A DNA stretch of 64,000 bases from Elusimicrobiota bacterium (GTDB lineage Bacteria > Elusimicrobiota > Elusimicrobia > Elusimicrobiales > UBA9959), in the NCBI GenBank assembly GCA_009773155.1, contig WOVA01000016.1:25507-89506 (forward strand), written 5' to 3'. Each line of letters begins with the position of its first letter. Positions within the stretch are counted from its first letter, which is position 1. The notes under the pieces are model-generated. The model had not been told where the DNA came from. It made no database searches and saw only the letters and a list, made by a program, of their open reading frames with translations. Below are positions 11,336-50,815 of the stretch, piece after piece. The translations under genes and the position numbers were made by a program.

Positions 11336-11398
11336 GGGACACCATGCCGCATGGTGTCCCCCGCTGATACACCATGCCGCATGGTGTCCCCCGCTGAT
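11336..11398. repeat. GGGACACCATGCCGCATGGTGTCCC palindrome, tandem pair (30-nt unit x2)
   Basis: The unit acaccatgccgcatggtgtcccccgctgat occurs at 11339-11368 and again at 11369-11398, in the eno-ftsB spacer. Confidence 0.9.
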
Positions 11399-11417
11399 GG
11401 CCGCCCCGTGGCGGACT

Positions 11418-12704
11418 TTACTTCTTGAAGCGGAAGGCCGCGTCCTTGGCGTACCTGGCCTTCTTGCCCAGCTCCTCCTCGATGCGGATGAGCTGGTTGT
11501 ACTTGCAGAGGCGCTCGCTGCGGCACGGCGCGCCCGTCTTGATGGCGCCGGCGTTGACGGCGACGGCGAGGTCCGCTATGAAGGCGTCCTCGGTCTCGCC
11601 CGAGCGGTGAGAGATCACGGTGGCGTAATCGGCCTCGTGCGCCATATTGATGACGCGAATGGTCTCGGTCAGCGAGCCGATCTGGTTGAGCTTGATGAGG
11701 ATGGCGTTGGCGATGTCCTCCTCGATGCCCCGCTTGAGGCGCTCGGGGTTGGTGACGAATAGGTCGTCGCCGACGATGCGGGCTTTCTTGCCCAGCTGCT
11801 TGGTGAAATGCTCCCAGCCTTCCCAGTCGTCCTCGGCCAGCGGGTCCTCGTAGGAGATGATCGGAAAATGCTTCTTCCAGTCCGCGTAGCGGGCCGTCAG
11901 CTGCTCGGCCGTCAGGTTGGCGCCCTCGAACATATAGCTGCCGTTCTTGTAGAACTCGCTGGCGGCGGAGTCGAAGGCTATCTGCACTTCCTTGAACGTG
12001 TAGCCGGCCTCCCTGATGGCCTTCGCGATGGTCTCGATCACGGCCTCGTGGGTGAAGATCTTGGGGGCGAAGCCGCCTTCGTCGCCGACCGCCGTGGTAT
12101 AGCCGCCCTTGGAGAGGATGGCCTTGAGCGTGTGGTAGACTTCCGCGCCCACGCGGATGGCGTCGGAGAACCTGGCCGCGCCCGTCGGGACGATCATGAA
12201 CTCCTGTATGTTGATGCCGCTGTCGGCGTGCTTGCCGCCGTTGACGATGTTGAGCATCGGGGCGGGCAGCAGGAAGTCCTTGTGCTTTATGCCGTAGGCC
12301 TTGCGGATATAGGCGTAGAGCGGCAGCCTGGCCGACTGCGCGGCCGCGCGGGCCAGCGCCATGGAGACGGAGAGGATGGCGTTGGCGCCCAGCTTGCTCT
12401 TGGTCTGCGTGCCGTCGAGCTCTATCATCTGGTCGTCGATCTTCTCCTGCTCGGCCTTGAGCCCGATGAGCTCGGGGGCGATGAGCCTGGTGACGTTCTC
12501 GACGGCTTTGAGCACGCCCTTGCCGCGGTAGCGCTTGCCGCCGTCGCGCAGTTCCAGCGCCTCGTGGGTGCCGGTGGAGGCGCCGCTGGGAACGGCGGCG
12601 CGGCCGAAGGAGCCGTCGGCCAGCAGCACGTCGGTCTCCACCGTGGGAAAGCCGCGGGAATCGAGTATCTCGCGGGAGACTATTTTTTTGATCTTGGCGT
12701 CCAT
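11418..12704 (-). CDS. eno: Enolase
   Basis: Full-length enolase ([13 protein letters not shown]..., [20 protein letters not shown]). Confidence 0.97.
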
Positions 12705-12741
12705 TGTGTTAATTCTCCTTGGGGCTGTGCCCCGTTGCTAT

Positions 12742-14238: not shown

Positions 14239-14363
14239 GCCATGAAATATAGCAAAAAACCTTTTTGAAAGCAAAAAAGAGAGCATGGCCCGGAATTTTG
14301 GATATAATATGTCTGAATGCACCATAAGAACGCCTTTCTGGTCCTGGGCCGACTGGGGGAGCG

Positions 14364-14819
14364 GTGAACAAGCGTCTCTCATCCAAGGCGACGCAGTACC
14401 TGCTGGACGCCTCCAACTTCGCGCGCCGTTTTCCCGGCGGTCATGGGTTCTCGGCGGACCTGGCGGAGGCCGAGTTCCTGGGCTGGATAGAGGATTTGAC
14501 CGGCCTGCCGGCCTTCGCCTCCTCCGGCTTCAGGGTCTATTTCGACGGGCCTTTCCGGGAGCTGCGGTTACGGGGACACCATGCCGCATGGTGTCCCCGT
14601 AACCGGGACCAGGTCAGCGTGACTTTCAACGAGGGGCGCACCGCCGACGAAGCGCTGCTGGAGACCGGGGAATTCCTGCTTTCCTGCGGCGTGCGCGCGC
14701 TGCTGGTCACCTCGGACAGGGGGCTGCAGTCGGCGGCCGGGGTGCGCGGCATCGGCTGGCTGAGCTGCGAGGATTTCTACAAGTTATGCCGTGCCGAGCT
14801 GCGCCGGGAAAGCCGTTGA
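14364..14819 (+). CDS. YacP/Rae1-like NYN-domain protein carrying an in-frame palindrome insertion
   Basis: Blocks align by eye with B. subtilis YacP: YLLDASNF / LLVDGYN, VYFDG / VVFDA, VSVTFNEGRTADE / VEVIFTKENETADE, LVTSD / VATSD. GTG start. Confidence 0.6.
   Translation: MNKRLSSKATQYLLDASNFARRFPGGHGFSADLAEAEFLGWIEDLTGLPAFASSGFRVYFDGPFRELRLRGHHAAWCPRNRDQVSVTFNEGRTADEALLETGEFLLSCGVRALLVTSDRGLQSAAGVRGIGWLSCEDFYKLCRAELRRESR
14566..14604. repeat. 39-bp perfect palindrome of the GGGGACACC family, inside the NYN-domain CDS
   Basis: ggttacggggacaccatgc-c-gcatggtgtccccgtaacc. It spans 13 codons, roughly the RLRGHHAAWCPRNR stretch. Confidence 0.92.
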
Positions 14820-15125: not shown

Positions 15126-15159
15126 TGAATTTAAGCGCTTTCGAAAGGAGAAAGTCATC

Positions 15160-19775: not shown

Positions 19776-20404
19776 CAGCGCGTCCTAAAACCCTTTTTGC
19801 GGAGCAGGGCGTTCACGGCGGAGCGGACCTGCCCGTGCACGGCCTCTATCGCCGCGGCCGCGTTCACGCGGACGACGCCGGGCCTGGCCGCCAGTTTCTT
19901 GTAAGCCCTGTTGACCTTCAGCCTGAAAGAGGCCGTCTGCAGTTCCATCCTGTCGCTGCCGCGGCATTCGCGCCGCTTGAAAACGCTGTCGGGCACGTCG
20001 AAGACTATGGTCAGGTCGGGCTTCAGGCCCATGGTGGCTATGCGGTTGAGCGTCTCCACCGTCTTCAGGTCCAGGCCGCGCCCGTAGCCCTGGTAGGCCG
20101 TCGTGGACATCGTATAGCGGTCGGAAACTATTATTTCGCCGGCTTTCAGCGCCGGCATTATGACTTTCAGCGTGTGCTTGGCGCGCGAGGTCTCGTAAAG
20201 GAAAAGTTCGGTGAGCGGTTCTATCTCGCTCTTGGGGTCCAGCAGTATGGCGCGTATCTTCTCGGAAAGATATGTCCCGCCGGGCTCGCGCGTCAGGCGC
20301 ACCTTGCGGCCCAGGCCGGTCAGCCAGTCCCGGAGCATGGCTGCCTGGGTGGATTTGCCGGAGCGGTCCGGGCCTTCGAGTACGATGAAAATCCCCCGTT
20401 TCAT
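19775..20404 (-). CDS. tmk: Thymidylate kinase
   Basis: P-loop FIVLEGPDRSGKST and the DRY motif (VSDRY). Start at MKRGIF (20404); the ORF-track extension crosses a palindrome repeat. Confidence 0.92.
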   Translation of the reverse strand: MKRGIFIVLEGPDRSGKSTQAAMLRDWLTGLGRKVRLTREPGGTYLSEKIRAILLDPKSEIEPLTELFLYETSRAKHTLKVIMPALKAGEIIVSDRYTMSTTAYQGYGRGLDLKTVETLNRIATMGLKPDLTIVFDVPDSVFKRRECRGSDRMELQTASFRLKVNRAYKKLAARPGVVRVNAAAAIEAVHGQVRSAVNALLRKKGFRTR

Positions 20405-20471
20405 TATTATATGATAGCAAAAAGGGAAAACCCCGGTTTTGCCGGGGTTTTCGGCGCGGCCGCGGCCGAAC

Positions 20472-20497
20472 GGGGCACCATGCCGCATGGTGTCCCC
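20472..20497. repeat. GGGGACACC-family palindrome copy (intergenic, tmk / rpoN-like divergent spacer)
   Basis: ggggcaccatgccgcatggtgtcccc. The left arm lacks one A. It is followed by ccccgatgccgg, as in the 50.5 kb copy. Confidence 0.8.
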
Positions 20498-20521
20498 CCC
20501 CCGATGCCGGCGCTGGTAAAT

Positions 20522-20530
20522 TGTTATAAT
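20522..20530 (+). promoter_or_regulatory. Possible extended -10 promoter (TGTTATAAT) for the rpoN-like gene
   Basis: An exact TGnTATAAT lies about 27 nt before ATG 20557. No good -35 was found. Confidence 0.3.
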
Positions 20531-20556
20531 TTTAGCGGGGGAAAAACCCCGACGAT

Positions 20557-21654
20557 ATGAGAAAAAAACGCTCTCTCGGGCTGGAGCTTTCGGCCAGGGG
20601 CTCCCTGGAGGCCACGCTGCGCGCGGCCAGGATGATGGCGGCCGGCGAGGACGAGTTCCTGGCGCTGGAGCGGGCGGTGGAAGAGGACCCTCTTTTTAAA
20701 AAGCTGGTACGCCCGCCGGGCGGCGCGTCGCCGGCCGTGCGGCGCCGCAGGCCGGGCGGGGTGAATTTCGCCTGGAACCGCGCCCTGGGCCAGGACATGC
20801 TCGTCGAACCGGGGGAAGTCCCCGCCGGCGGCATGCTGGAAGGGCGCGAGGCCGCCCTGGCCCTTATAAAACGCATTGGCGCCGGGAATTTCGAGAGGTA
20901 TTTTCTTTCAGACGAGCCTGTACCGGCCGGGCGCAGTGCTTCCGGCACCGACAGCGGCGAAAGCCGCCCTGATCCGTCCGCGGAGGCCGCCGCGGCCTGC
21001 GGGCTCGCCCCGGCGGAGTTCGCCGAAGTCAGGGCTTTCACCGCCTCTTTCCTGGCGGCTCATGAGCGGCTGCAGCTGAAGCCCGTCGACCGCCCTTTCG
21101 CCGCCGTGGCGGCCGTCGCCGCCGGGCCGCGCGGCCCGGAACTTTCCTATCTTTCCTCGCGCTACGCGCGCGGGACCTACGACGTGGACCTGGCCGCCCT
21201 GCGCGGGCTGGGGGCCTCGGGCCTGATCTCCTCCGACGAAAAGCGCCGCCTCCGGCCGCTGCTGGCCGCCCTGCGGTCGCTCAACAGCAAGAAGCGCGGG
21301 CTGACGCTGCTGCTGCCGGCCCTGGCCGAGCGCCAGGCCGATTTCCTGCTGGGCCGCATCCCGTCGCCCAGGCCGCTGTCGATGACGGCCCTGGCCGCCG
21401 ACCTGGGCCTGAGCGCGGGCAGCGTCTCGCGGCTCGCCGCCGGGCGCAGCCTGCTCCTTCCCTCCGGTGAGGAAATAACCATACGCTCCCTGTTCCCGGG
21501 CAAGGGCTCCCGCTCGATTGACAGGATAAGGGATATATTGATACAAAAAGGCGGGGATAAACTGACCGACGACGAGGTCGCCGCCCGGCTGCGCGGGAAA
21601 TACGGGCTCAAACTCTCCCGACGCACGGTCAACCATTACAGGGGACGTATCTGA
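20557..21654 (+). CDS. rpoN: Short, divergent RNA polymerase sigma-54-like factor
   Basis: Region-I-like N-terminus (LGLELS...LEATL...DEFLALERAVEEDPLF). C-terminal HTH (PLSMTALAADLGLSAGSVSRLAAGR) and an RpoN-box-like LSRRTVNHYRGRI. At 365 aa it is shorter than typical RpoN. Confidence 0.68.
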   Translation: MRKKRSLGLELSARGSLEATLRAARMMAAGEDEFLALERAVEEDPLFKKLVRPPGGASPAVRRRRPGGVNFAWNRALGQDMLVEPGEVPAGGMLEGREAALALIKRIGAGNFERYFLSDEPVPAGRSASGTDSGESRPDPSAEAAAACGLAPAEFAEVRAFTASFLAAHERLQLKPVDRPFAAVAAVAAGPRGPELSYLSSRYARGTYDVDLAALRGLGASGLISSDEKRRLRPLLAALRSLNSKKRGLTLLLPALAERQADFLLGRIPSPRPLSMTALAADLGLSAGSVSRLAAGRSLLLPSGEEITIRSLFPGKGSRSIDRIRDILIQKGGDKLTDDEVAARLRGKYGLKLSRRTVNHYRGRI

Positions 21655-22751
21655 AAAAACAGGAATCACAATCGCAAGCGCTGCAGCACAGCCTTTTCCG
21701 GTCGGTCTTCAACGAGTCGACCGAGAGGTTCCTGGTGCTCGACGCCGCCGGCGTCATCCGGCTGGCCAATGACAGCGCCCTGGAGCTGCTCGGCTATAAA
21801 GAAAGCGAAGTGGTCGGCCAGGGCGTCGCGAAGCTGGTGCTGGAGAAGGACGCGGCCGAGCTGGAAGGCTTCCTGAAAGCCGTATCCGAAAGCGGCGAGC
21901 TGCGCAACTATAAATTCTACTTCCTCACCTCGCGCCAGAGCATCATCCGCCTCTTCATCAGCATAAAGGCCCTGAGGGACGAGGACGGGAAGCTCGAGGG
22001 CTTCAGGCTGGCCCTCTCGCTGGTCTATCCCGACGAGTGGGCGGCCCTGCGCGACCCGCATTTTTTCCAGGGCGTCGCCAGGAAGCTCGGCCGCCTGACC
22101 TCCGTGGGCCAGCTCACGTCCATCTTCGCCCATGATATCAAGAACCCGCTGCACGTGATACTTTCCACCTCCGAACTGATGCTCTCCTCCGGCGAGCTGC
22201 CGGCGGAATCCCGCGAGAGCCTGGAACTCATCGAGCGCAACGCCCAGCGCGCCTCGCGCATAGTCAAGACCCTGCTCGATTTTTCGCGCAGCGGCATCTG
22301 CCAGCTGCGCCCCTGCTCGGTTAACGATATCGCCGAGCATTGCATCGGGCTTCTCGCCAGCTCGCTGAAGACCTCCAGGATCTCGGTCAAGAAGGAACTC
22401 GGACAGGCGCCCAAGGTGTTCCTGGACCCGCATTACCTCAACAGCGTGGTCTACAATCTGCTCAACAACGCGGCCGAGGCCCTCGGCCCCGACGGGGGCG
22501 AGATAGTCGTCGCCTCCGGCGAGAACACGCCGGGGGAAGCCTTCCTGCGCATAACGGACAATGGCCGCGGCATGGAGCCCGGCGTCCTCTCGTCGGTATT
22601 TCAGCCCTTTTTCACCACCAAGGAGAACGGCACCGGGCTGGGGCTGTACCTGGCCAGGCAGGTCATGAACGAACACAGCGGCCGCATCACGCTCGACTCC
22701 AGGCCCGGCAAAGGCACGTCGGTGACGCTCTTCTTCACCAAGCTGGCCTGA
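21651..22751 (+). CDS. PAS-domain sensor histidine kinase (start uncertain)
   Basis: PAS (LFRSVFNESTERFLVLDAAGVIRLAN), H-box SIFAHDIKNPL, and ATPase N/G boxes (NLLNNAAEA, DNGRGM, GTGLGL). PAS residues extend upstream of the first GTG (21735). The only in-frame candidates are CTG 21651 and CTG 21681. Confidence 0.85.
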   Translation: MKKQESQSQALQHSLFRSVFNESTERFLVLDAAGVIRLANDSALELLGYKESEVVGQGVAKLVLEKDAAELEGFLKAVSESGELRNYKFYFLTSRQSIIRLFISIKALRDEDGKLEGFRLALSLVYPDEWAALRDPHFFQGVARKLGRLTSVGQLTSIFAHDIKNPLHVILSTSELMLSSGELPAESRESLELIERNAQRASRIVKTLLDFSRSGICQLRPCSVNDIAEHCIGLLASSLKTSRISVKKELGQAPKVFLDPHYLNSVVYNLLNNAAEALGPDGGEIVVASGENTPGEAFLRITDNGRGMEPGVLSSVFQPFFTTKENGTGLGLYLARQVMNEHSGRITLDSRPGKGTSVTLFFTKLA

Positions 22752-22772
22752 GCCCCGCCCCCCCATACATCC

Positions 22773-24141
<1,369 letters not shown>

Positions 24142-24146
<5 letters not shown>

Positions 24147-24202
24147 ATTTTTTTCTACAAAATATTGTAGAATAAAATCTACAATGTGGAATAAAGTCTA
24201 CA
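24142..24202 (+). promoter_or_regulatory. Putative enhancer (UAS): three TGTAGA-N6-TCTACA palindromes
   Basis: TGTAGA 24142 / TCTACA 24154 / TGTAGA 24166 / TCTACA 24178 lie on a 12-bp lattice, plus TGTGGA 24185 / TCTACA 24197. The array sits about 80-140 bp upstream of the sigma-54 promoter and starts at the activator stop codon. Confidence 0.6.
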
Positions 24203-24249
24203 CTCACCCTTGTAACAAGTTTTTCACAGTCCCAACAGGAAGCGAAAAT

Positions 24250-24277
24250 ATCCCGTCCGTCAGGCGGGATTTTTTAT
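24250..24277 (+). terminator. Rho-independent terminator after the activator gene
   Basis: The hairpin tcccgtcc-gtca-ggcggga is followed by TTTTTT. Confidence 0.65.
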
Positions 24278-24278
24278 T

Positions 24279-24293
24279 TGGCAACTTTGTTGC
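24279..24293 (+). promoter_or_regulatory. Sigma-54 (-24/-12) promoter
   Basis: TGGCAACTTTGTTGC fits TGGCAC-N5-TTGC with GG and GC correctly spaced. It lies about 75 nt upstream of ATG 24369, which has a GGAGG RBS. Confidence 0.75.
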
Positions 24294-24368
24294 TACTACT
24301 TTTTTCGGGGAACATCGATTTTTCGGTCATCGCTTGACTGGTTTTAATAGTTAGTGGAGGAATAGCTT

Positions 24369-25787
24369 ATGAAACGGATCATTAATCTCCTGACGGCCGC
24401 GGCCCTCTCTTCGCTCCTGTCCCTGCCCGCCTACGCCGCCCCGCTGCTGATAAACTACCAGGGCCGGCTGATAGACACCGCCGGGAACCCGCTGATCGTA
24501 ACAAACCAGCCCATAACTTTCAGGATCTACGACGCTCTTACGGGCGGCAATCTCCAATGGACCGAGAACCAGAGCATAACTCCGGACAACGGCATCTTCA
24601 ATGTCTCGCTCGGAAGCGTCAGCTCTCTCCCCGCCCCGGTCTTTTCCTCCGACGACCGGTACCTCGAGGTCCAGATCGGCGCCGACTCCCCGCTTTCGCC
24701 GCGCACCCGGCTACTCTCCGTTCCCTACGCCGTTTACGCCGCCAATATAGGATCTCCTTCCAGTTCCATCAATGTTTCCACTCATATGGTCCTTTCCGGC
24801 GGCCAGCTCCGCTTCGGTAATTTTGCCTCCGCTCCCTCGGTCGCCGTCGGCGCCGGCGCGATGTATTATAACACCACCAATAACCAGCTCTATTACCACA
24901 ACGGCACGGCCTGGACAGCCCTGGCGGCCGGCGGCATCAGCCCGCTGACCGACAACGGTGACGGCACCGTTACCCTAAACGTGCCTGCCAACAGGGTCGG
25001 CCTTGGAAAAGCGCCCGCCGAAAAGTTGGACGTGGCCGGTAATATCAAGGCCGATTACGGCCTTATATCCGCGACCGCCGCGGTCAGCGGCGCGGTCTAT
25101 GTGGGCTCCGGCGCGAACATCAGCACGATAACGCCGACGGGATTCTTCGGCAGCGGCGCGGGGCTGCTTAACGTGCCGGTGGGCGACAATACGGTGACGT
25201 CGGCCAAGATAGTGGACGACAGCATAATGAACGCCGACATCAACGCGTCGGCCGCGATAGCCAAGAGCAAGCTGGCGGCTTTGAATATAGTGAACGCGGA
25301 CGTGGACGCGGCGGCCGCGATAGCCCCGTCGAAGATAGCGGGCACGGCGGCCATACTGGGCGCGAATACGTTTACCGGCGCGCAGACGTACGCCGCCGGT
25401 TCGTCGCTGGCGGCGGCGGCCGCACAGCCTGGCGTGGCGGTGTCGACGGCGGTCTTCATCGGCACGGGCGCGAACATCAGCACGATAACGCCGACGGGAT
25501 TCTTCGGCAATACAATACACGCTTCCAGCGCCACGCTGACGGGTGACGCGGAAGTCCGCGGCTTGATTAAGGCCGGCTCCACCCCGGCGGCCATAACCGA
25601 TGTCTCCGGCAATGTCTTGGCCTCCAAACTGATCGGGGCAATACCACAAGCTGTCACTGTGTTCGTCTCCGCTGATTGTGAGGCTTTAACCCCAGGGACT
25701 GTGGCACAGTTCTGCTATAACAGCACTTCGTTTATTCTTAATGTTTCGACTAGCACGAATCTCGGAGGCTTTGCTCCGTTGCATTAG
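24369..25787 (+). CDS. Secreted fibre/adhesin-like repeat protein (uncharacterised)
   Basis: Signal peptide MKRIINLLTAAALSSLLSLPAYA. The protein is Ala/Gly/Ser/Thr/Asn-rich with no TM. It has the motifs INYQGRL and MYYNTTNNQLYYHNGTAWTAL and the internal repeat G.GANISTITPTGFFG. Confidence 0.7.
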   Translation: MKRIINLLTAAALSSLLSLPAYAAPLLINYQGRLIDTAGNPLIVTNQPITFRIYDALTGGNLQWTENQSITPDNGIFNVSLGSVSSLPAPVFSSDDRYLEVQIGADSPLSPRTRLLSVPYAVYAANIGSPSSSINVSTHMVLSGGQLRFGNFASAPSVAVGAGAMYYNTTNNQLYYHNGTAWTALAAGGISPLTDNGDGTVTLNVPANRVGLGKAPAEKLDVAGNIKADYGLISATAAVSGAVYVGSGANISTITPTGFFGSGAGLLNVPVGDNTVTSAKIVDDSIMNADINASAAIAKSKLAALNIVNADVDAAAAIAPSKIAGTAAILGANTFTGAQTYAAGSSLAAAAAQPGVAVSTAVFIGTGANISTITPTGFFGNTIHASSATLTGDAEVRGLIKAGSTPAAITDVSGNVLASKLIGAIPQAVTVFVSADCEALTPGTVAQFCYNSTSFILNVSTSTNLGGFAPLH

Positions 25788-25819
25788 TGATAGACCTAAG
25801 CATCCCTCGCCGGCTAATT

Positions 25820-28003: not shown

Positions 28004-29109
28004 GCGGAGATATTATGGAAAGGGACGAAAATAAAGTTTCTCTCCTCGCGGCCGCGGCGGCGCTGCTCTTTCTCTCCGCCGCCTCAGCGCGCGCCTCGTT
28101 CACCGATTCGGGTTACGCGGCCCGCCAGGCCGCGATGGGCCAGGCTTTCACCGCCATCGCCGACGACTCCGGCTCGGTGCCCGCCAATCCAGCGGGGCTC
28201 GTGAATCTCTCCGGTCCCGAGCTCACCGCCGTCTACGGCAAGCTCTACCAGGGCCTCTCCGACAATTCCGACATCGGCCGCGGCTATTTCGGCTTCGCTT
28301 CTCCGGTGAAGCGCTGGCTGCCCGGCGCCGCGGCTTTCAGCTGGGACGAGACCCGCCTGACGGAAGCCTACGCCGAAACCTCCTTCTCGGTCTCCTACGC
28401 CACCCGCGCCTGGCGCGGCCTGGCGACCGGCCTGACGCTCAAATACCTGCGCAAGGGCTACGAATCCGATTCTTACACGGCGGTTGACCCGCTTTTCAGC
28501 GGCGGCTACTCCAAGGCCGCCCTGGGCGTAGACCTCGGCGCGCATTACCGGCTCTCGCCGAAATATACGTTCGGCCTGCTGCTGCGCAATATCAACCGCC
28601 CCGACCTGGGCATAGGCGGGAAGGACGCGCTGCCGGCGCAGGGCAGGCTCGGCGCGGCCTACTGGCTGCGCAACGGCGTGGTCAGCCTGGACGCCGGCTT
28701 CGGCGAGGATTTCGAGCTGGCCCTGGGCGCCGAATACGTCCTTCACCACAAGTACCCGCTGCGCCTGGGGCTCAACGTAAACGACGACGCGCGCCGCAAC
28801 GTGAGCTTCGGCCTCGGCGCCAGGATGGCCTCTTTCGGCCTCGATTATTCCTTCACCCTGCCGATAGGCGGCGTGCAGGACATCTCGGGCTCGCACCTGC
28901 TGGCTTTCTCCATGCGCTTCGGCCGGGCCGACGCCGGCTTCTACGCGGCGCAGGCCGATCCCGCCGCCGCGGCCCAGCTGCGGGACGCGCTCGCGGCCCT
29001 CAAGGCCGCCGAGCAGCGCGAGCGCGATCGCGAGCGGGAGATCCTGGACCTGGAGCGCCGGCTGCTGGAGAAGCAGCGCGCTGTCGGCGGGCCGGCGCCC
29101 TCCCGATGA
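28000..29109 (+). CDS. Outer-membrane beta-barrel protein (PorV/PorQ- or PorP/SprF-like), C-terminal coiled coil truncated by a frame change
   Basis: Signal peptide LLFLSAASARA. The motif AAMGQAFTAIADDSGSVPANPAGL resembles that family. Alternating beta-strand pattern ending ...GSHLLAFSMRF, then a coiled coil (EQRERDREREILDLERRLLEKQ), with the stop at 29107-29109. Confidence 0.7.
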   Translation: MSGDIMERDENKVSLLAAAAALLFLSAASARASFTDSGYAARQAAMGQAFTAIADDSGSVPANPAGLVNLSGPELTAVYGKLYQGLSDNSDIGRGYFGFASPVKRWLPGAAAFSWDETRLTEAYAETSFSVSYATRAWRGLATGLTLKYLRKGYESDSYTAVDPLFSGGYSKAALGVDLGAHYRLSPKYTFGLLLRNINRPDLGIGGKDALPAQGRLGAAYWLRNGVVSLDAGFGEDFELALGAEYVLHHKYPLRLGLNVNDDARRNVSFGLGARMASFGLDYSFTLPIGGVQDISGSHLLAFSMRFGRADAGFYAAQADPAAAAQLRDALAALKAAEQRERDREREILDLERRLLEKQRAVGGPAPSR

Positions 29110-29485: not shown

Positions 29486-29619
29486 CCGGGACCGAGGCCG
29501 GCGCTTTATCAGGGATTTCCCTTTTTAGTAACATTTGCGAAACACGCCGGGTGTAAATTATAGGCGCCGGTACTCCGCCCCGCCGGCGGCAAGGACGGGG
29601 CAGGTGCGGAAGAAAGCAA

Positions 29620-29642
29620 GGACACCATGCGGAATGGTGTCC
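29620..29642. repeat. GGACACC-family palindrome copy upstream of the giant coiled-coil gene
   Basis: ggacaccat-gcgga-atggtgtcc, about 40 nt before ATG 29682. Confidence 0.75.
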
Positions 29643-29681
29643 CCACCCGGCGGAACGATGTTTTTTTTACGGACTTTAACT

Positions 29682-36063: not shown

Positions 36064-37236
36064 ATGGCCAAGATACTGATCGTCGACGACGAACCAGACA
36101 TGAGGCTGGCGATAAAGAACGTCCTGCGCCTGAGGGGGCACGAAGTCTCCGAGGCCCAGGACGGTCCGTCCGCGCTGGCCGCGCTGGAGGGCGAGAAGCC
36201 CGACCTGGTCCTGCTCGACATCAGGCTGCCCGGCATGGACGGCATAGAGCTGCTGGAGCGCATACGCAAGATGAGCCGCTCCCTGCCGGTGGTGATGATA
36301 ACCGGGTACGGCCACATACAGTCGGCCGTCGACGTGATGAAGCTCGGAGCCAACGAGTACCTGCAGAAACCTTTCGAGAACTCGCAGCTGGTGGATACTG
36401 TGAAGCGCTTCACTTCCGGGCGCAAGCCCGCGCCGGCGGCCGCCGCAGGGGACATCCCGCCTCATGATGGCGGGGACGCCATGCCGCAGGGCGTCGCCAA
36501 ACCTCTCTTTACCCCGGCCAGGCTGCTGGCCCTGGCCGCCGCCGCCGCCGCCCTGCTTCTTTTTTTCCGCTGGTCCGACGGCCGGCGCAATTACGCCGCG
36601 GCTTACGAGTCGGCCGGGGCCAACGTGTCATCCCTGGTCTGGCGCGGCGGGGACCTCTGGGTCTCCGACTGGCTGGAGCAGAGCCTCTACCGCTACGCGC
36701 CGCGCGGCGGCAAGCTCGCCCTTGCCGAGAAAGTCGCGCTGCCGGGCACCCATATCACCGGCTTCGCCTTCGGCGACGACGCCCTCTACATCTGCGATTC
36801 CTGGGCCGGCGTGGTGCAGGAACGTACGCTGGAGAAGGGGTTCCCGGTGGCCAGGAACCACGACCTGCCGGGCAAGATAACCTCGCTTTTCTTTGACGGC
36901 AAATATCTCTGGACCTGCGATTCGGAGGGCGTGGTCTCGCGCCGGAGGACCGGGGAAGACCTGCCGGTGGAGGCGGAGTTCCGGCTGGCGCATAAGCCCG
37001 ACCAGATCTATAAGGACTCCGGCGCCTTCTGGTCGGTGGTCTCCTCGAGCGGCAGGCTCTACCGCCACCGGCTCGACGACAAACTTTCGGTGGAGGCGGT
37101 CTTTACGGCCGGCGACCCCGGCGCCGACAGGCCCCTGTCGGCCTTTACCTGGAGCAAGGGCAGGCTCTGGCTGGCCAGGGAGGGCGGCAAGAGCATAGGG
37201 GAGTACGGCCCCGGGATATTGAAAGAAACCGACTGA
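36064..37236 (+). CDS. Response-regulator receiver fused to a TM helix and a C-terminal beta-propeller-like repeat domain
   Basis: REC (KILIVDDEPDMR...DLVLLDIRLPGMDG...KLGANEYLQKPF), TM LLALAAAAAALLLFF, then five repeats of the type [LF].W..G.LW..D (SLVWRGGDLWVSDW, ALYICDSW, YLWTCDSEG, AFWSVVSSSG, RLWLAREGG). Confidence 0.85.
   Translation: MAKILIVDDEPDMRLAIKNVLRLRGHEVSEAQDGPSALAALEGEKPDLVLLDIRLPGMDGIELLERIRKMSRSLPVVMITGYGHIQSAVDVMKLGANEYLQKPFENSQLVDTVKRFTSGRKPAPAAAAGDIPPHDGGDAMPQGVAKPLFTPARLLALAAAAAALLLFFRWSDGRRNYAAAYESAGANVSSLVWRGGDLWVSDWLEQSLYRYAPRGGKLALAEKVALPGTHITGFAFGDDALYICDSWAGVVQERTLEKGFPVARNHDLPGKITSLFFDGKYLWTCDSEGVVSRRRTGEDLPVEAEFRLAHKPDQIYKDSGAFWSVVSSSGRLYRHRLDDKLSVEAVFTAGDPGADRPLSAFTWSKGRLWLAREGGKSIGEYGPGILKETD
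36472..36498. repeat. Degenerate GGGGAC-family palindrome inside the response-regulator linker
   Basis: ggggacgccatgccgcagggcgtcgcc (arms gacgcc/ggcgtc) encodes GDAMPQGVA between the REC domain and the TM. Confidence 0.5.
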
Positions 37237-37255: not shown

Positions 37256-37293
37256 AAAACCCCACCCCCGCCATATGGCGGGGATGGGTTTTT
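37256..37293. terminator. Bidirectional rho-independent terminator ending the locus (convergent with the pilin-like gene)
   Basis: aaaaccccacccccgcc-atat-ggcggggatgggttttt. Confidence 0.78.
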
Positions 37294-37308: not shown

Positions 37309-37734
37309 TTAGTTTATCAGGTCTCTGCCGCAATTCGCGGGGCAGGTCGGAGTCGCGCTCGCGTAGGGGTAGGTGATCACATAGTTGCCGTAAGTCGCGG
37401 GAGCGGCCCCTACCCTGGTGGCGGTCGCTCCCGTGGCGGTAAGAGCTAAACTGTATATTTTCTGGACGCATGCGCTTGTGCCCGTGCATTCCGCTCCGCC
37501 GGCGGTCTTGAAGGTAACGTCCAGCTCGTCCCAGTTGGTACTGAAGACCGACTTCCTTGCGTAATACCGCTCCTGCGCGGCTTTGATAGCGGCGAAAGCG
37601 GACAGCGCTTCGGATACCCTGGCGCGCTCCACCACCTTGAAGTACTGCGGTATGGCCATGGAGGCCAGGATACCGATGATCAGCACGACGACGAGAAGCT
37701 CGATAAGAGTGAAGCCCTTGCGTATTTTTTGCAT
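37309..37734 (-). CDS. Type IV pilin-like / pseudopilin protein (prepilin N-terminal cleavage-methylation domain)
   Basis: MQKIRKGFTLIELLVVVLIIGILASMAIPQY is a class-III signal peptide with G/F cleavage and Glu+5. Confidence 0.88.
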   Translation of the reverse strand: MQKIRKGFTLIELLVVVLIIGILASMAIPQYFKVVERARVSEALSAFAAIKAAQERYYARKSVFSTNWDELDVTFKTAGGAECTGTSACVQKIYSLALTATGATATRVGAAPATYGNYVITYPYASATPTCPANCGRDLIN

Positions 37735-38922: not shown

Positions 38923-40155
38923 ATGGCTAAACCCGAAATCATCGCCGGCCTCGACATGGGCAGCGGCAAAGTTACCTGCGTCCTGGCCTCCCACGACCCC
39001 GCCGCCGGCAAGGTGCGGATAATCTCCGGCGCCAGCGTGCCCTGCAAGGGCCTCAAGGGCGGCGTAGTGGTCAGCATCCCCGAGACCACCAAGGCCGTCG
39101 CCCTGGCCATGGAAGAGGCGGAGGAGAAGGGCGGCGAGGTCATCCGCGAGGTCCTGATGGGCGTGCGCGGCACCCATATCACCACCTACAACAACCGCGG
39201 CGCCTACAATATCGCCCGTACCGACCGGGAGATCACCGCCGACGACGTGGCCAGCGTGATAGAGAGCGCCAAGGCCATCCCGATGTCCAGCGACAGGGAG
39301 ATCCTGCACGTGGTGCCGCAGGGTTTCTCTCTCGACAGGCAGAAGGGCGTGCCGAATCCCGTCGGCATGGAAGGGTCCCTGCTCGAGGTGGGCGTGCACA
39401 TCGTAACCGCTTCCAGCTCGCACATCAATAATCTCATGCGCGCGGTCTCGCAGGCCGGCTTCCGCGTGGTGGACACCGTCTACAGCCTGCTCGCGCTGGG
39501 CGAGGTGGTGGTCTCCCCCGAGGAGAAGGACCTGGGCTGCCTGCTCATCGACGTCGGGGACCAGTCGGTCTCCGTCGGCAGTTACTACGAGGGCAGCCTG
39601 CGCTTCAGCCGCGAGCTGGGCATAGGCGGCTACCACGTGACCCGCGACATCGCCTACGCGCTGCACACCTCCATGAGCGCCGCGCAGGCCATAAAGGAGA
39701 AGCACGGCGCCGTGCTCTCCTCGCTGGTGGACGACGAGGGGGCCATCAGCGTGGTCGGCCTCGACGGCCGCAACAAGCGCGAGATAAAGCCGCGCGAGCT
39801 GCTGGACTACATCCAGCCGCGCGTGGAGGAGATCTACGGCAAGGTGAACTCCGCGCTGCAGAACTGCAACTACGCCTTCCCCGGCGGCGCCGTGCTGACC
39901 GGCGGCGGCTCGCTGCTGCGCGGCATGCCCGAGGCGGCCGAGCAGATGCTGGAGCTGCAGCAGTCGCGCCTGGGCCTGCCCCGTCCCGATTTCATCGACG
40001 GCCCGCCGGAGTACATGACCCACGAGTACACCACCGCGGCCGCGCTGGTCTGCTACCCGTTCATCAGGTCCTGGCCGGGCGACGAGGGCCGCGCGGGCGC
40101 CACCTCGGGCGGCGTCTTCAGGCGGGTCAAGCGCCTGCTGCAGAACATGATCTGA
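38923..40155 (+). CDS. ftsA: Cell division protein FtsA
   Basis: Actin-fold phosphate motifs (IIAGLDMGSGKV, LLIDVGDQSVSV, AVLTGGGSLL). Confidence 0.93.
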   Translation: MAKPEIIAGLDMGSGKVTCVLASHDPAAGKVRIISGASVPCKGLKGGVVVSIPETTKAVALAMEEAEEKGGEVIREVLMGVRGTHITTYNNRGAYNIARTDREITADDVASVIESAKAIPMSSDREILHVVPQGFSLDRQKGVPNPVGMEGSLLEVGVHIVTASSSHINNLMRAVSQAGFRVVDTVYSLLALGEVVVSPEEKDLGCLLIDVGDQSVSVGSYYEGSLRFSRELGIGGYHVTRDIAYALHTSMSAAQAIKEKHGAVLSSLVDDEGAISVVGLDGRNKREIKPRELLDYIQPRVEEIYGKVNSALQNCNYAFPGGAVLTGGGSLLRGMPEAAEQMLELQQSRLGLPRPDFIDGPPEYMTHEYTTAAALVCYPFIRSWPGDEGRAGATSGGVFRRVKRLLQNMI

Positions 40156-46485: not shown

Positions 46486-46502
46486 CCGTTCCCGGGGGAC
46501 CC

Positions 46503-49313
46503 CTGTCACACAGCCGCAAGCTATTTTATGCCCTGACGCTGGCGCTCCTCTGCCCGGCCGCGGCCCTGGCCGACAATAAGGTCATAATCAGGGACTTCGA
46601 CTGGAAGGTCTATTCCACCGACCATTTCGACGTCCATTATTACGCCGAGTCCGAGGGTTGGCACCGCTTCGCCGCCGCCGTGCTGGAGGACGCCTACCGG
46701 ACCACCGGGCTCTCGCTCAACCCCAAACTGGACAAGCGCATTCCCTTCTTCCTCTACGCCTCCATAAACGACATGCAGCAGTCCAATATCGCCGATACCG
46801 GCGACGGCGTGGGCGGCGTGACCGAGGCCTTCAAGGACCGCTTCATGGTCTGGTCGGACGGCTCGCGCGAATGGCTGGAGGACGTCATCCGCCACGAATT
46901 CGCCCACGAGGTGCAGTTCAGCCTGCTTATCGACGGTTTCTGGAAGTCCGCACGCATACTCAAGCTCTACATCTACCCGCTCTGGATGATGGAGGGCATC
47001 GCGGAGTACGCGACCGGCGACCGCGACCTGGCCGTGGAGGAGATGTATATACGCGACGCGGCCGCCGACGGGCGCCTGACCGAGCTGTGGAGGCTCAACC
47101 AGTTCTCCCACCTCAAGCCCCACCAGGTGACCTACGCCTACAAGCTCGGCGGCCAGGCGGTGCGTTTCCTCGCTGAGCAGTACGGCGAAGACCGCGTGGG
47201 CAGGATGCTGGAGCTCTATCGCACCCGCTACGACGCCTCGTCGGTGCTGCTGCCGCTGGTCGGGGCCGACATCTTCGGGTTCGACAGCAGGTTCCGCGAG
47301 CGCACCACCCAGAAGTTCCTGGCCCAGGCGGAGCGCGAGGGGTTGCGCGGGCCGGAGGCCTGGGCCCCGCCGCGCACCGCCAACAAATATCCGGGTATAC
47401 CGGAGTTCAACCTCAGCCCCGCCCGCGCGGCGGGGACGCTGGCCTGGCTCTCTACGGAAGAAGGCCATCCGCCCGTGGTGAAGGCGCTCCGGCCCGGCGA
47501 TAAAAAAGCGCGGGTCCTGCGCGGCCTCTCCGCCGGCGCGGAGAACATCCCCTACGGCCGCTTCACCAAGCCGCTGCGTTCGCTCTCGCTCTCTCCGGAC
47601 GGGCGCTGGGCCGTTTTTTCCGGCCAGCGCAACCACCGCGAGGGTATTTACGCCTGGGACCTGGAGACCGGCCGCTCGGCGCGCCTGGGCCCCGAAGGCC
47701 TGGAGGAAACCCGCCAGCCGCATTTTTCCCCCGACGGGAAGCGGCTGGTCTTCGTCGGCATGAAAGGCGGCTTCAACGACCTCTACGAGATGGATTTCCA
47801 CGGCCTGGAAAAAGTGCGGGCCGCGCGCCGGCTGACCGAAGACCGGGACGACGAGTCCTCGCCCACCTTCGCGCCGGACGGTGCGATATACTTCTCCTGC
47901 GAATTGCCGGTCTCGTCGGCGCCCGTCCGGGGTCTCTGCTCGCTGGCGCCGGGGGGAGAGAAGAAAGTCGAGCTGACGCTGGACGGCAGCGTCTACGATC
48001 CTGCGGTCTCGCCCGACGGCTCCAGGGTTATCTTCACCTGCGACAGGGAGAATATCTTCGACCTCTACGAGTACGAGCCGGCCTCGGGCGCGGTGACCCG
48101 GCTGACGCGCTCGCTGGGCGGCTCCTTCACCCCTTCCTACGGCGAAGGGGGGGAGATAGTCTTCGCGGCCTTCCGCGGCGGCGAGATGAACGTCCATTCC
48201 GGCCCCCGTGAAAATTTCCTCTCCGAGGTCGTAGTGCCGCCGGCAGACGGTACGGGGACACCATGCGCCATGGTGTCCCTTCCTGATGCCTTCGGCGTAT
48301 ACCGGCCCTACCGCTTCAGAGCCTCCACGGACCTGTTCTTCCCGGCCTTCCTGTTCTCCTCGCCCGGCGGGCTTTTCTGGATGAACTACTGGCAGGCCTC
48401 CGACATGCTGGGCGACCACAAGGCCGGGCTCTTCCTCACCTATAATTCCGGCGCTCCCTACCTCAGTTACCAGTTCGACTACACCTACGGCCCGCACAGG
48501 ACGCGGTTCTATTTCTCGGCTGCGGGCCTGTCCTCCGAAGGGAACAAGGACGCGCTGTCGCTGGAATACGACAAGCGCTGGTCGAGGCAGATAGCGGGCG
48601 CCTCGTATCCTTTCGACCGCTATAACGGCGCCCTGCTCTATCTGATACGCAAGAATGAGAAGACCGAATACACCGACGTAGACTATGCCTACAGGAACGA
48701 CGTGCGCGCGGCGCAGCTGGCTTACTTCCGCGACACCGCCAACGGCGTCTACCTGCTGGCCAACCGCGGCTCGCGCCTGCAGCTGAGCTGGATAAAAGCC
48801 GTCGAAAAGTTCGGCGGCAACAGGCGCTACGACGCCTATGTCGGCGAGCTGACCAAATTCTTCCCGCTGAGCAAGCAGGCCACGCTGGTCAACCGCCTTT
48901 TCGCGGCCGAGAGCTTCGGCCGGGACCGCGACGCTTTCGACTACGGCGGCCTGTCCGGCGTGCGCGGCTACGCCCGCCGCAACGGGGCCAACGAGGCCGG
49001 GCGGGTGCTGGTCAACAACCTGGAGTGGCGCTTCCCTCTCTTCGAGGACCTCAACTATTATATGTGGTATATGTTCCCCGATTTTTATTTCAAGACCATC
49101 TTCGCCAAGGTTTTCGTCGACTCGGCCGTCCCGCTTCAGCCCCAGGGGTCCTGGCGGTTCAGCGCGGACGACGCGATAACTTCCGTGGGTTTCGGCGTGA
49201 ACGTGCACACCTTCATCCTGCAGGCTTTCCCGCTGGTGCTGAGCCTGGATTACGCGCGCCGGCTGGACGACGGAGGGTACATAGTGTATTTCTACCTGGG
49301 CCCGCTTTTCTGA
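46503..49313 (+). CDS. Composite outer-membrane protein: HExxH peptidase-like module + PD40/TolB-like propeller repeats + Omp85/BamA-like C-terminal barrel (start uncertain, possibly CTG)
   Basis: VIRHEFAHEVQF (HExxH), PD40 repeats (SPDGRWAVFSG, FSPDGKRLVF, FAPDGAIYF, VSPDGSRVIF), and the barrel end ...IVYFYLGPLF. The signal-peptide-like SHSRKLFYALTLALLCPAAALA is encoded in-frame upstream of the first ATG (46680). The only in-frame candidate start there is CTG 46503. Confidence 0.8.
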   Translation: MSHSRKLFYALTLALLCPAAALADNKVIIRDFDWKVYSTDHFDVHYYAESEGWHRFAAAVLEDAYRTTGLSLNPKLDKRIPFFLYASINDMQQSNIADTGDGVGGVTEAFKDRFMVWSDGSREWLEDVIRHEFAHEVQFSLLIDGFWKSARILKLYIYPLWMMEGIAEYATGDRDLAVEEMYIRDAAADGRLTELWRLNQFSHLKPHQVTYAYKLGGQAVRFLAEQYGEDRVGRMLELYRTRYDASSVLLPLVGADIFGFDSRFRERTTQKFLAQAEREGLRGPEAWAPPRTANKYPGIPEFNLSPARAAGTLAWLSTEEGHPPVVKALRPGDKKARVLRGLSAGAENIPYGRFTKPLRSLSLSPDGRWAVFSGQRNHREGIYAWDLETGRSARLGPEGLEETRQPHFSPDGKRLVFVGMKGGFNDLYEMDFHGLEKVRAARRLTEDRDDESSPTFAPDGAIYFSCELPVSSAPVRGLCSLAPGGEKKVELTLDGSVYDPAVSPDGSRVIFTCDRENIFDLYEYEPASGAVTRLTRSLGGSFTPSYGEGGEIVFAAFRGGEMNVHSGPRENFLSEVVVPPADGTGTPCAMVSLPDAFGVYRPYRFRASTDLFFPAFLFSSPGGLFWMNYWQASDMLGDHKAGLFLTYNSGAPYLSYQFDYTYGPHRTRFYFSAAGLSSEGNKDALSLEYDKRWSRQIAGASYPFDRYNGALLYLIRKNEKTEYTDVDYAYRNDVRAAQLAYFRDTANGVYLLANRGSRLQLSWIKAVEKFGGNRRYDAYVGELTKFFPLSKQATLVNRLFAAESFGRDRDAFDYGGLSGVRGYARRNGANEAGRVLVNNLEWRFPLFEDLNYYMWYMFPDFYFKTIFAKVFVDSAVPLQPQGSWRFSADDAITSVGFGVNVHTFILQAFPLVLSLDYARRLDDGGYIVYFYLGPLF
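48255..48279. repeat. GGGACACC-family palindrome copy inside the Omp85-like CDS
   Basis: gggacaccatg-cgc-catggtgtccc. The extended 46-nt unit 48245..48290 encodes DGTGTPCAMVSLPDA between the propeller and barrel parts. Confidence 0.88.
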
Positions 49314-49340
49314 CCTATGTTTTATGATAAAATCCTAACT

Positions 49341-50420
49341 ATGAAACACATACTGACTTTTATTTCCCCACTGCTCCTGGCGGGCGCTCTCTTTGTCCCG
49401 GCCGCGGCCCAGACCGCGCCGGCAAAAAAAGCCGCCTCGCCGGCCCCCAAAGCCGCCGCGCCGGCCCCAAAAGCCGCCCCCGCGGCCAAGAAGGCGGCCG
49501 CCGCCGCGCCTAAAGCGGCGCCCGCGGTAGCGGCGTCCACCCCTACCCCGAAAACGCCTTTCGAGGAAGCCACGGACAACCTGAAAGCGGCCGACGCCGC
49601 CACCCGCCGCCAGGGCGCCGACGCGCTGGGCCGCCTGCGCGACGGCAAGGCCGAGCCGCTGCTCCTGAAAGCGCTCTCCGACGAGAGCGCGCCGGTCCGC
49701 GCGGCCGCGGCCGACTCTCTGGGCATGCTCAGGTCGCGCGGAGCCGTGCCGGTACTGGCGAAGATGCTGACGGACGACAAGGACCCTTCCGCCAGACAGG
49801 CGGCGGCCATCTCCCTTTCCTATATCGGCGATCCCGCGGCCGGCGACGCGCTGGTGAAAGCGCTCAAGGACGAGGCTCCCGGCGTGCGCTACGCCGCCGC
49901 GCGCACCCTCGGCGTCATCCGCTACGCCAAGGCGGAGGACGCGCTGATAGTTTTCCTCGACGGGAAGGACCTTAATATGCGCCGCGGCGCCGCCGCCACG
50001 CTGGGCCAGCTGCGCTCCGTCAAGGCGCTGGACGGCCTCTACGTCGCGGTCCGCGACGAAGACAGGTTCCTGCGGCTGGAGTCGGTCAAGGCCATAGGAG
50101 AGATAGGCGACAAGGCCGCCGTTCCCGCCCTGTCCAAGGCCCTCGCCGACAAAGACCAGAGCGTGAGCATAGAAGCCGCGCTCGCGCTGGCTAAACTGGG
50201 CAGCGACGAGGGGCTCAAGGCCGCCTACGAACTGATAAAGTCTCCCGAGATGCCCGTAAAGCAGCAGGCGGCTAATGTCATAGCCCTGATGGGCAATGAG
50301 AAGAGCGTTAAGGTCCTCGACGAGGTCTACGCCGCGGAGAAGGACGAGAATTCGAAGATGCTCATAGATTACGCCAGGCAGAGGCTCGCCGCCCGCCTGC
50401 GGCTGCAGAAACAGCAGTAG
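49341..50420 (+). CDS. Secreted HEAT-repeat (PBS-lyase-type) protein with Ala/Pro/Lys-rich N-terminal region
   Basis: Signal peptide MKHILTFISPLLLAGALFVPAAA, an AKKAA/APKAA low-complexity tract, then repeated ..VR..AA.ALG....A.P.L...L.D units. Confidence 0.8.
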   Translation: MKHILTFISPLLLAGALFVPAAAQTAPAKKAASPAPKAAAPAPKAAPAAKKAAAAAPKAAPAVAASTPTPKTPFEEATDNLKAADAATRRQGADALGRLRDGKAEPLLLKALSDESAPVRAAAADSLGMLRSRGAVPVLAKMLTDDKDPSARQAAAISLSYIGDPAAGDALVKALKDEAPGVRYAAARTLGVIRYAKAEDALIVFLDGKDLNMRRGAAATLGQLRSVKALDGLYVAVRDEDRFLRLESVKAIGEIGDKAAVPALSKALADKDQSVSIEAALALAKLGSDEGLKAAYELIKSPEMPVKQQAANVIALMGNEKSVKVLDEVYAAEKDENSKMLIDYARQRLAARLRLQKQQ

Positions 50421-50446
50421 GCCCGTCCGGGCCTCCCCACAGCGAT

Positions 50447-50815
50447 ATGGCAAAGAAGTCCCGCAAGCGCGCCAAGGCCGCCCAGGAGAAGGGCGCCGCC
50501 GCGCGCGGCGCGTATTTAACCGGCACGCCCTTAGACGGTACGGGGACGCCATGCGGCAGGGTGTCCCCCGCCGATGCCGGGGGGGAGATAAGCGGCGCGG
50601 GCTGGCTGATAGTGGCCGTTTCGGTCATCACCGCCGTCGTCGGCTACTTCCTGCTCTCCAAAGCCGCTCCCGAAGGCCGCGACCTCTACTCCAATCTCTC
50701 TCCTTTCGTGATCCTGGCCGGCTATATAGGCGTAGCCGTGGGAATAATGTGGCCGGGACGGCGGGGGGAGGGGGAGGAATACCCTGCTTCCGCCGGCGAA
50801 AAGTTCCCGGCCTGA
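50447..50815 (+). CDS. Small hypothetical membrane protein (two TM helices) containing a palindrome-derived segment
   Basis: Basic N-terminus, then two TMs (GWLIVAVSVITAVVGYFLL, FVILAGYIGVAVGIMW). Residues DGTGTPCGRVSPADA are encoded by the repeat. Confidence 0.5.
   Translation: MAKKSRKRAKAAQEKGAAARGAYLTGTPLDGTGTPCGRVSPADAGGEISGAGWLIVAVSVITAVVGYFLLSKAAPEGRDLYSNLSPFVILAGYIGVAVGIMWPGRRGEGEEYPASAGEKFPA
50542..50568. repeat. Degenerate GGGGAC-family palindrome copy inside the small membrane-protein ORF
   Basis: ggggacgccatgcggcagggtgtcccc. By hand alignment, the extended unit 50533..50578 matches 48245..48290 at 39 of 46 positions. Confidence 0.65.

Follow-up and report, generated by a model that had tools for sequence, protein, structure and literature searches.

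REP-like palindromic repeats in intergenic spacers and reading frames of an Elusimicrobiota genome: a probable new family of small non-autonomous elements

In this work, we describe a short dispersed palindrome in 64,000 nucleotides of DNA from an Elusimicrobiota bacterium (GenBank assembly GCA_009773155.1, contig WOVA01000016.1, positions 25,507 to 89,506 of the forward strand), a stretch referred to below as the window. The genes eno and ftsB, a NYN/YacP-like gene, tmk, a sigma-54-like open reading frame (ORF), the gene of a giant coiled-coil protein, a response-regulator gene, and the genes of an 877-residue protein (p877) and of a 122-residue membrane protein (p122) either contain or border on a copy of it (Table 1). 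The gene context was established from codon-position GC content, a codon model of our own and gene starts corrected by homology. A pattern search with GGGACRCCATGCNNCAKGGYGTCCC, in which up to three mismatches were allowed, matched eight sites of the window, and the expectation from 100 dinucleotide shuffles, used as a control, was 0.00. Four sites are intergenic (11336, 11366, 20472 and 29619) and four lie in genes, where the reading frame is kept (14573, 36473, 48255 and 50543). A first-pass annotation of this DNA had proposed a dispersed palindrome family with at least eight copies in 64 kb in both intergenic and coding positions, and these counts bear it out.

The family consensus is GGGGACACCATGC[C/G]GCATGGTGTCCCC, that is, 12-bp arms around a 1-nt S centre, which form a perfect hairpin; read directly from the sequence, this core is free of stop codons in all six frames. 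Its centre base is C or G independently of the orientation of the flanks (13 to 6) and differs between orthologous copies. The hairpin energy of the copies as DNA ranges from -12 to -32 kcal/mol. Related flanks had also been claimed, and in the window lineage unrelated sites do have flanks in common, a left-hand GGTACY and a right-hand CCGCYGATGC. The copies at 36473 and 50543 have two diagnostic substitutions in common (ACGCC and GCAGGG). When the longer 27-mer GGGGACACCATGCCGCATGGTGTCCCC was searched in the window at up to nine mismatches, only the same eight copies were obtained, each with 0-4 mismatches. Since nothing in the window matches at 5-8 mismatches and chance matches begin at nine, a very degenerate copy suspected at 54088-54112, which would need more than nine, was discarded. 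A 27-mer at 36448-36474, directly 5' of the response-regulator copy, has nine mismatches to the core and could be a decayed second unit, though at chance level (1.2 such matches expected per window). The 11-nt halves, with one mismatch allowed, matched exclusively within the eight palindromes, and isolated half-sites were not seen in the window. A ninth copy lies on the same contig just 5' of the window, in a HemW-like gene. A stem-loop unit of 20-40 bp in many dispersed copies corresponds to the general class of repetitive extragenic palindromic (REP) elements.

Table 1. Copies of the palindrome and the enolase terminator in the window
Feature	Positions	Strand	Composition and context
Head-to-tail dimer	11330-11400	+	GGTACC, core 11336-11360, 30-bp unit with core 11366-11390, then CCGCTGATGG; eno-ftsB spacer
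Enolase intrinsic terminator	11305-11407	-	Outer stem GGGGCGGCC (11399-11407) with GGCCGCCCC (11315-11323), then CUCUAUUUUC; dimer in loop
41-bp perfect palindrome	14565-14605		CGGTTACG-core-CGTAACCG; in NYN/YacP-like gene 14364-14819 (+)
Copy in divergent spacer	20472-20508	+	GGGGCACC...GTCCC + CCCCCCGATGCC; between tmk and sigma-54-like ORF
Copy with 2-3 mismatches	29619-29643		Typical flanks absent; 38 nt upstream of true start (29682) of giant coiled-coil gene
Degenerate copy, 4 mismatches	36473-36497		Linker of response-regulator gene 36064-37236 (+); peptide GDAMPQGVA
Copy in p877 gene	48249-48290	+	GGTACG-core-TTCCTGATGCC; in 877-aa Peptidase_MA_2/PD40 ORF 46680-49313 (+); peptide GTGTPCAMVSLPDA
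36-nt insertion in p122 gene	50537-50572	+	GGTACG + core 50543-50567 + CCGCC; in 122-aa membrane-protein gene 50447-50815 (+); peptide GTGTPCGRVSPA

Once the starts had been corrected by homology, the copies originally placed between genes (11336/11366, 20472 and 29619) proved indeed to be intergenic. The tandem pair placed at 11336-11398 in the eno-ftsB spacer consists of two 30-bp units (the true start of ftsB is at 11300). At the orthologous eno spacer three loci of other genomes (L056, L041 and L095) carry a monomer and the window a dimer, and locus L026 has the identical 81-bp dimer at a site unrelated to this one. The eno copy is nested within a separate terminator stem: in the predicted RNA fold of the enolase terminator (-72.7 kcal/mol, z = -5.7) the element dimer is enclosed by the outer stem, and in L095, L056 and L041 the equivalent outer stem, GGGGCGGCC/GGCCGCCCC followed by CUCUAUUUU, is retained with the element in its loop. 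The motif is absent, over as much as 21 kb, from more than 25 syntenic Elusimicrobia relatives, which are 72-92% identical to the window in the C-terminus of enolase and 64-80% identical in the DNA of window positions 2.3-20.4 kb. A plain terminator of a GC stem and a T-run follows enolase in the majority of these motif-free relatives. The copy at 20472 stands 67 nt upstream of tmk (minus strand, true start by homology about 20404), and the sigma-54-like ORF begins at 20557 on the plus strand. Filled and empty states were also met in the ftsA-ftsZ spacer, which in L016 (genome CAZJUL, positions 200-300) holds a copy with its own flank CAATGCTTG and in the window is empty, the two genes being 2 bp apart (40152-40155).

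For three genic copies, those in the NYN, p122 and HemW genes, comparison with orthologs demonstrated an insertion. In the NYN gene the copy is a net in-frame insertion of 30 bp, read as the peptide HHAAWCPRNR, and all 11 syntenic orthologs (39-46% identical) have a 10-residue gap precisely at the palindrome. The palindrome had been reported as perfect and 39 bp long; its arms (14565-14584 and 14586-14605, 20 nt each) are indeed 100% complementary, and the length is 41 bp. The gene was aptly named, given that its orthologs match PF05991 (NYN_YacP), over residues 13-136 and with 24-27 bits, versus residues 82-142, past the insert, and 15.7 bits in the window protein. In the p122 gene the sequence PLD|DAGG of the closest ortholog becomes PLDGTGTPCGRVSPADAGG, and the element is missing from 12 of 12 orthologs (61-80% identical); aligned with four empty-site DNAs, the insert has GAC before it and GAY after it, its position being ambiguous by no more than 1 nt, and duplications of 2 nt or longer are absent. 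The HemW copy adds 33 nt, and its 11 residues are absent from 10 of 10 orthologs (48-83% identical), including that of the close relative JAVVFK. The window genome alone carries the p122 and HemW copies. In-frame insertion into ORFs whose orthologs lack it is the mark of the Rickettsia palindromic elements (RPEs), and it was found here. The copy in the response regulator is a putative insertion, the linker of L016 not aligning with that of the window. The contig of L095, the closest metagenomic relative, has its position 1 at a match to window position 14556 and ends about 10 nt before the NYN palindrome, which is consistent with the repeat breaking a short-read assembly.

The remaining genic copy has a longer history. 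Its host had been called Omp85-like, a name that we do not retain, since Pfam gives only Peptidase_MA_2 and PD40 in the 877-residue ORF. The insert is flanked by the conserved stretches VVPPA and AFGVYRPY; it is common to L064 (genome CAZVWK, 83% nucleotide identity), where another in-frame unit of 30 bp is added, and in L182/L183 (JAVHLJ; 3796-3848) the element occupies the same position the other way round. The two orientations could go back to re-use of the site, to a flip or to separate insertions. About 500 bp downstream of the JAVHLJ p122 ortholog, L183 contains an rve (DDE integrase-core) transposase fragment (6838-7281), probably an unrelated insertion sequence (IS) element.

Depending on the frame, the core is read as GHHAAWCP, GD(T/A)M(R/P)(H/Q)GV or GTPCGMVSP. 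Among 14 independent genic copies, GDTM(R/P)HGVP is used nine times, GTPCGMVSP three times and GHHAAWCP twice; nine of the first 13 being in the GDTM frame gives p ~0.03 after correction. Usage is genome-specific, as six of six JAVVFK copies are in the first of these frames and three of five copies of the window genome in the GTPCGMVSP frame. The bias could be caused by selection against inserts with Cys or Trp, or by a target preference combined with codon structure.

An exact 25-mer scan detected the core in no fewer than 93 stretches, which come from at least 11 further species represented by metagenome-assembled genomes (MAGs), and single genomes among them have at least 24-27 stretches of 8 kb with the exact core. 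The carriers fall into two clades. Clade A (GC 0.61-0.65) comprises the window genome, JAVVFK, DNQL, CAZVWK, CAYPYG, CAZJUL and JAGVVD, all labelled Elusimicrobia, and in most of its genomes the flanks are the asymmetric GGTACY/CCGCYGATGC. Here 13 of 31 copies (~40%; four of eight in the window) lie deep in ORFs, which is still a depletion versus the coding fraction of 0.89. Eight of ten host ORFs scanned have Pfam domains, and in at least four hosts (HypF, amidase, CysS, AT-ACP) domains are found on both sides of the copy, which occupies the interdomain linker. To clade B (GC 0.54-0.58) belong JACRIR, which bears the label Candidatus Poribacteria, CAYVDS, CAYVQZ, CAZEBC and CBFDAY, with a taxonomy taken from depositors' labels only. 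Its palindrome is extended by A/T-rich outer arms (median 9 bp per side), and intergenic positions account for 81 of 96 copies (p = 5e-40). Most of these stand between co-directional genes, and seven in divergent spacers. Of 56 co-directional copies, 36 are nearer to the upstream 3' end, at a median of 41 nt from the upstream stop codon. The location characteristic of REPs, mainly extragenic and near 3' ends, is thus that of clade B and not that of clade A. The oldest copies are shared with genomes of ~83-92% identity; the eno-loop and p877 copies are older than species splits, and the activity of the family spans a long period.

Behind many copies of both clades the right arm and flank are repeated in tandem, with a period of 28-30 bp. 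In L049 (1513-1590), L082 (5502-5590) and L079 (2294-2355) a full palindrome is followed by one or two repeats of right arm plus outer arm (period 28-29 bp), so that a single left arm is able to pair with several right arms. Some clade B genomes contain composite forms of ~90-100 bp built around the palindrome. Near the copies of five CAYVQZ loci (L009, L037, L044, L084 and L085) we noticed other GGGGAC...GTCCCC hairpin repeats, for example GGGGACTGTCCCCGAAGCG and GGGACAGATTCACTGTCCC, which suggest a wider superfamily with a common stem foot.

When the 96 clade B copies were aligned as a 24-pair palindrome, 90% of the positions were paired, and the covariation score was 0.316 versus 0.097 in shuffles and at most 0.091 in slid controls. 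The left 8-mers exist in 45 variants, with exact mirroring in 68 of 98 copies. Wobble pairs being few, the mirroring is best placed at the DNA level, as arm-to-arm correction or as selection for a DNA hairpin. Such changes are not unprecedented, because REP subfamilies with complementary stem changes were described by Di Nocera et al. (PMC3733652).

We conclude that these palindromes probably represent a new family of small non-autonomous REP-like repeats with an RPE-like tolerance of coding sequence. The repeat, a 25-45 bp hairpin with lineage-specific flanks, is previously undescribed, and its copies were added repeatedly, at different times, as discrete units of 30-36 bp. A mobile family is favoured because discrete units have turned up at new places in individual lineages, flanks and dimers recur, substitutions are shared between copies, and close relatives are empty. 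In such a family genic copies would survive as additions of 10-12 residues, mostly in interdomain linkers, and would persist because the core is stop-free in six frames and only inserts of a multiple of three are kept. Spread may be catalysed in trans by an enzyme recognising the conserved hairpin foot GGGGACAC; the likeliest candidate would be a single-strand-DNA HUH/Y1 transposase, similar to the REP-associated tyrosine transposases (RAYTs) or to those of IS200/IS605, because the inserts come without a target-site duplication. This lack argues against a DDE-type miniature inverted-repeat transposable element, which we rejected on the evidence of the p122 insert, and is compatible with single-strand HUH/Y1 enzymes. 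After insertion the hairpin would be kept intact by selection on DNA or RNA structure or by arm-to-arm correction, because both arms are compensated and a decayed tail is missing. The invariant core, the absence of decayed copies and the compensated arms together suggest a hairpin under constraint, beyond selfish spread, which may have a host role of the kind known from domesticated REPs. The invariance of the core across distant clades, together with the mirrored arms, also points to a conserved machinery of recognition and maintenance.

Several observations weigh against this explanation. A phmmer search with E. coli RayT found no homolog in ~0.74 Mb of motif-bearing loci and the window (best E = 1), nor in 1.05 Mb of further loci (best E = 0.08), a fraction of each genome being sampled both times. 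Clustering of the predicted proteins of 93 loci revealed no gene family recurrently beside copies and no transposase, the neighbours being housekeeping genes. The ends of the element are undefined: the filled/empty comparison at p122 shows no target-site duplication of 2 nt or more, and GATGCC (50573-50578), counted as part of the 'conserved' right flank, is host sequence there. At p877 one host site carries opposite orientations between species, for which a simple one-off insertion does not account, and the JAVHLJ copy is a compensated arm variant (ACGCC/GGCGT) at an orthologous genic site. The gap between 4 and 9 mismatches in the window means that a tail of decayed copies is lacking. In clade B as many as 49 of 96 copies have both members of an outer-arm pair changed, with few G.U intermediates. 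Finally, the core is identical across clades A and B, although the sampled homologues common to both are at most 34% identical.

These features would suit a mechanism other than RAYT, in which, for example, fold-back copying or arm-to-arm correction on single-stranded DNA both spreads and maintains the hairpin; we regard it as unlikely. It would keep the arms identical, as seen in the 45 outer-arm variants, nearly all mirrored and with few G.U pairs; it would re-use or flip sites, giving opposite orientations at one host position; and it would recognise the invariant 27-nt core of two very distant clades. As a by-product, fixed peptides of 10-12 residues would be written into housekeeping proteins.

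That the palindrome is instead a site kept for its usefulness to the host, either as the site of a conserved DNA-binding protein (a nucleoid organiser, a regulator or one of gyrase type) or as an uptake signal, is rather doubtful in our estimation. The constancy of the 25-nt core in the two clades speaks for it, as do the retention of copies at orthologous positions, the missing decayed tail and the compensated arm changes, and a type IV pilin of the window has a weak, sub-threshold match to ComP_DUS (25.6 bits, cutoff 27.3), the DNA-uptake-sequence receptor. This pilin-like protein, with an N_methyl motif, is encoded at 37312-37734 (minus strand) beside tRNA-Lys. A useful site of this kind does not explain, however, why discrete 30-36 bp insertions sit in housekeeping genes of single lineages, why flanks and whole dimers recur at unrelated loci, or why close syntenic relatives have zero copies; no common relation of copies to promoters was seen, and isolated half-sites are absent, unlike the case of uptake sequences. 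An uptake sequence was rejected also on the grounds that single 9-12-mers show no excess and all half-matches fall within the eight palindromes. The host-site explanation is only partly a rival, as a useful site may still spread by transposition, as in domesticated REPs.

We find it improbable that the copies are RNA-level hairpins (terminators, mRNA stabilisers or RNase sites) which arose or were recruited locally, gene by gene. The copy in the enolase terminator does lengthen the terminator hairpin, the low-GC copies are mostly downstream of co-directional genes at the short distance from the stop codon given above, and a few variants pair G.U on one strand only. The same sequence is nevertheless present at unrelated loci in both orientations, in divergent promoter spacers and deep in ORFs, and outer-arm changes are almost all full Watson-Crick swaps, which speaks for the DNA level. 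The element was not accepted as a terminator in its own right, since a T4 run follows only 6 of 97 low-GC and 1 of 31 high-GC copies, at a background of 5%. At gathering score Rfam returned only tRNAs, and the weak hairpins around a copy were sub-threshold and of microRNA type, so a known RNA family was not accepted either; a hammerhead-like reading of the CUGAUG flank failed for want of GAAA, of the stem arrangement and of any Rfam match.

A conserved peptide motif of the host families, with the DNA likeness secondary, would accord with the recurrent GDTM(R/P)HGVP, GTPCGMVSP and GHHAAWCP and is refuted by the precise gaps in NYN, p122 and HemW orthologs (39-83% identity), by the use of all three frames of one DNA and by identical DNA in non-coding spacers, which leaves it practically no chance. 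An assembly or sequencing artefact, which the L095 contig stopping directly before a palindrome, a typical repeat-induced break, might recall, can be set aside with the same near-certainty because independent assemblies give identical sequence: the NCBI MAG agrees with two independent ENA megahit assemblies (99.97-100% identical, all copies present in the compared stretches), core-bearing MAGs stem from several projects and assemblers, and copies are in frame and at orthologous positions.

Other searches for relatives or a source of the element gave the following. A collection of viral contigs contained zero exact matches to the motif, on which basis phage origin was rejected. The small ORFs of the window encode Fur, TPR, pilin and similar proteins. 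Literature searches for the motif, and for REPs in Elusimicrobia, returned nothing relevant, and with Rfam equally silent the family is still unrecognised, as it was at first reading. We propose no target consensus: GATGC/GCATC belongs to the host at p122 and in part at the p877 site of L183, but it is not clearly present in the empty sites of HemW and NYN.

Obtained results would extend REP-type hairpin repeats to Elusimicrobia, a phylum known mainly from MAGs. They present two forms of one core, an intergenic one whose A/T-rich arms can hold stop codons and a stop-free one that colonises coding sequence, and the contrast between them bears on what confines such elements to intergenic space. 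In practical terms, the repeats break assemblies, their 10-12-residue indels weaken domain detection, and they may serve as strain-level markers for uncultured hosts.

Some other features of the window are worth recording. The giant coiled-coil gene and tmk stand next to each other, in divergent orientation, in the relatives L122 and L143. In the window they are separated by 9.2 kb (20404-29682) with six genes, three of which encode the sigma-54-like protein, a histidine kinase with a PAS domain and an activator of sigma-54. The copies at 20472 and 29619 bound this segment, which may result from a rearrangement or from an insertion whose junctions carry repeats. A 38-bp perfect palindrome unrelated to the family, AAATAAAAAGAGCCGCGGC/GCCGCGGCTCTTTTTATTT at 3599-3636 between convergent genes, has the look of an intrinsic terminator working in both directions; hairpins like it are found at 37256-37293 and 24142-24183. 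About 1.1 kb (50815-51930) is without a confident gene call and is followed by a 167-residue ORF (51931-52431) with only faint helix-turn-helix and excisionase-like matches; the regional GC content is lower, 0.60-0.62. Three tRNA genes lie at 56.8, 58.9 and 63.0 kb.

Among known systems, the DNA uptake sequences of Neisseria and Pasteurellaceae (DUS/USS) resemble the present family in being abundant, also genic and sometimes paired as terminator hairpins, but they are mostly single non-palindromic 9-12-mers, while here isolated half-sites do not occur. With the palindrome-associated elements derived from IS200/IS605 it has in common the hairpin, there centring the ends, insertion without target-site duplication ('peel and paste' transposition of single-stranded DNA) and possibly a preference for an adjoining short sequence, GATGC/GCATC being host-derived at two sites (n = 2); TnpA, TnpB and distinct left and right hairpin ends were not found. 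REPINs are inverted REP doublets, and their single-copy RAYT gene is flanked by REPINs (Bertels and Rainey; PMC3116915, PMC5581495). Like the REPIN-RAYT systems, our repeats are long-lived, vertically retained hairpins whose copies are partly shared between species and partly lineage-specific, but they come as singletons or as head-to-tail, sometimes partial, dimers with a period of 28-30 bp and not as inverted doublets.

REPs in the broad sense are the closest class. Two superfamilies are distinguished by an unpaired GTAG (G-Y/T-R/M-G) or CGTC at the stem-loop end, and subfamilies, intragenic copies and dimers are documented (PMC3733652). The first-pass comparison with REPs, or the bacterial interspersed mosaic elements (BIMEs), and with RPEs holds for the dispersion and the in-frame genic copies, not for RAYT, the GTAG/CGTC tag or the size of RPEs. 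In the window clade the tag is GTAC, then Y, and only ~4 of 14 copies have GACG in front of it; copies of the low-GC clade have A/T-rich arms, symmetric on the two sides, and are untagged. The repeat is a perfect palindrome, ~40% of the copies are genic in the window clade, and the head-to-tail dimers with a truncated second unit are a type rare in REPs. RAYT was not found in the sampled DNA, and by our literature searches Elusimicrobia have not been reported to carry REPs. On the other side stand the short stem-loop with a minimal loop and a 12-bp stem, as in the long-stem GTAG-24 type, the conserved unpaired end motif (GTAC), the high copy number and dispersion, the subfamilies with complementary stem changes, the arrangement as singletons, dimers and clusters, the position of clade B copies mostly between co-directional and convergent genes, and intragenic copies such as REPs have in Opitutus terrae and Rickettsia conorii.

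The RPE-1 elements of Rickettsia are ~100-150 bp long, whereas our unit measures 30-45 bp and adds 10-12 residues, and the two are set apart by size and by the Rfam and literature searches, not by an alignment of consensus sequences. In both, however, the element is inserted in frame into housekeeping genes, is read through as an extra peptide, and varies in its presence among orthologs.

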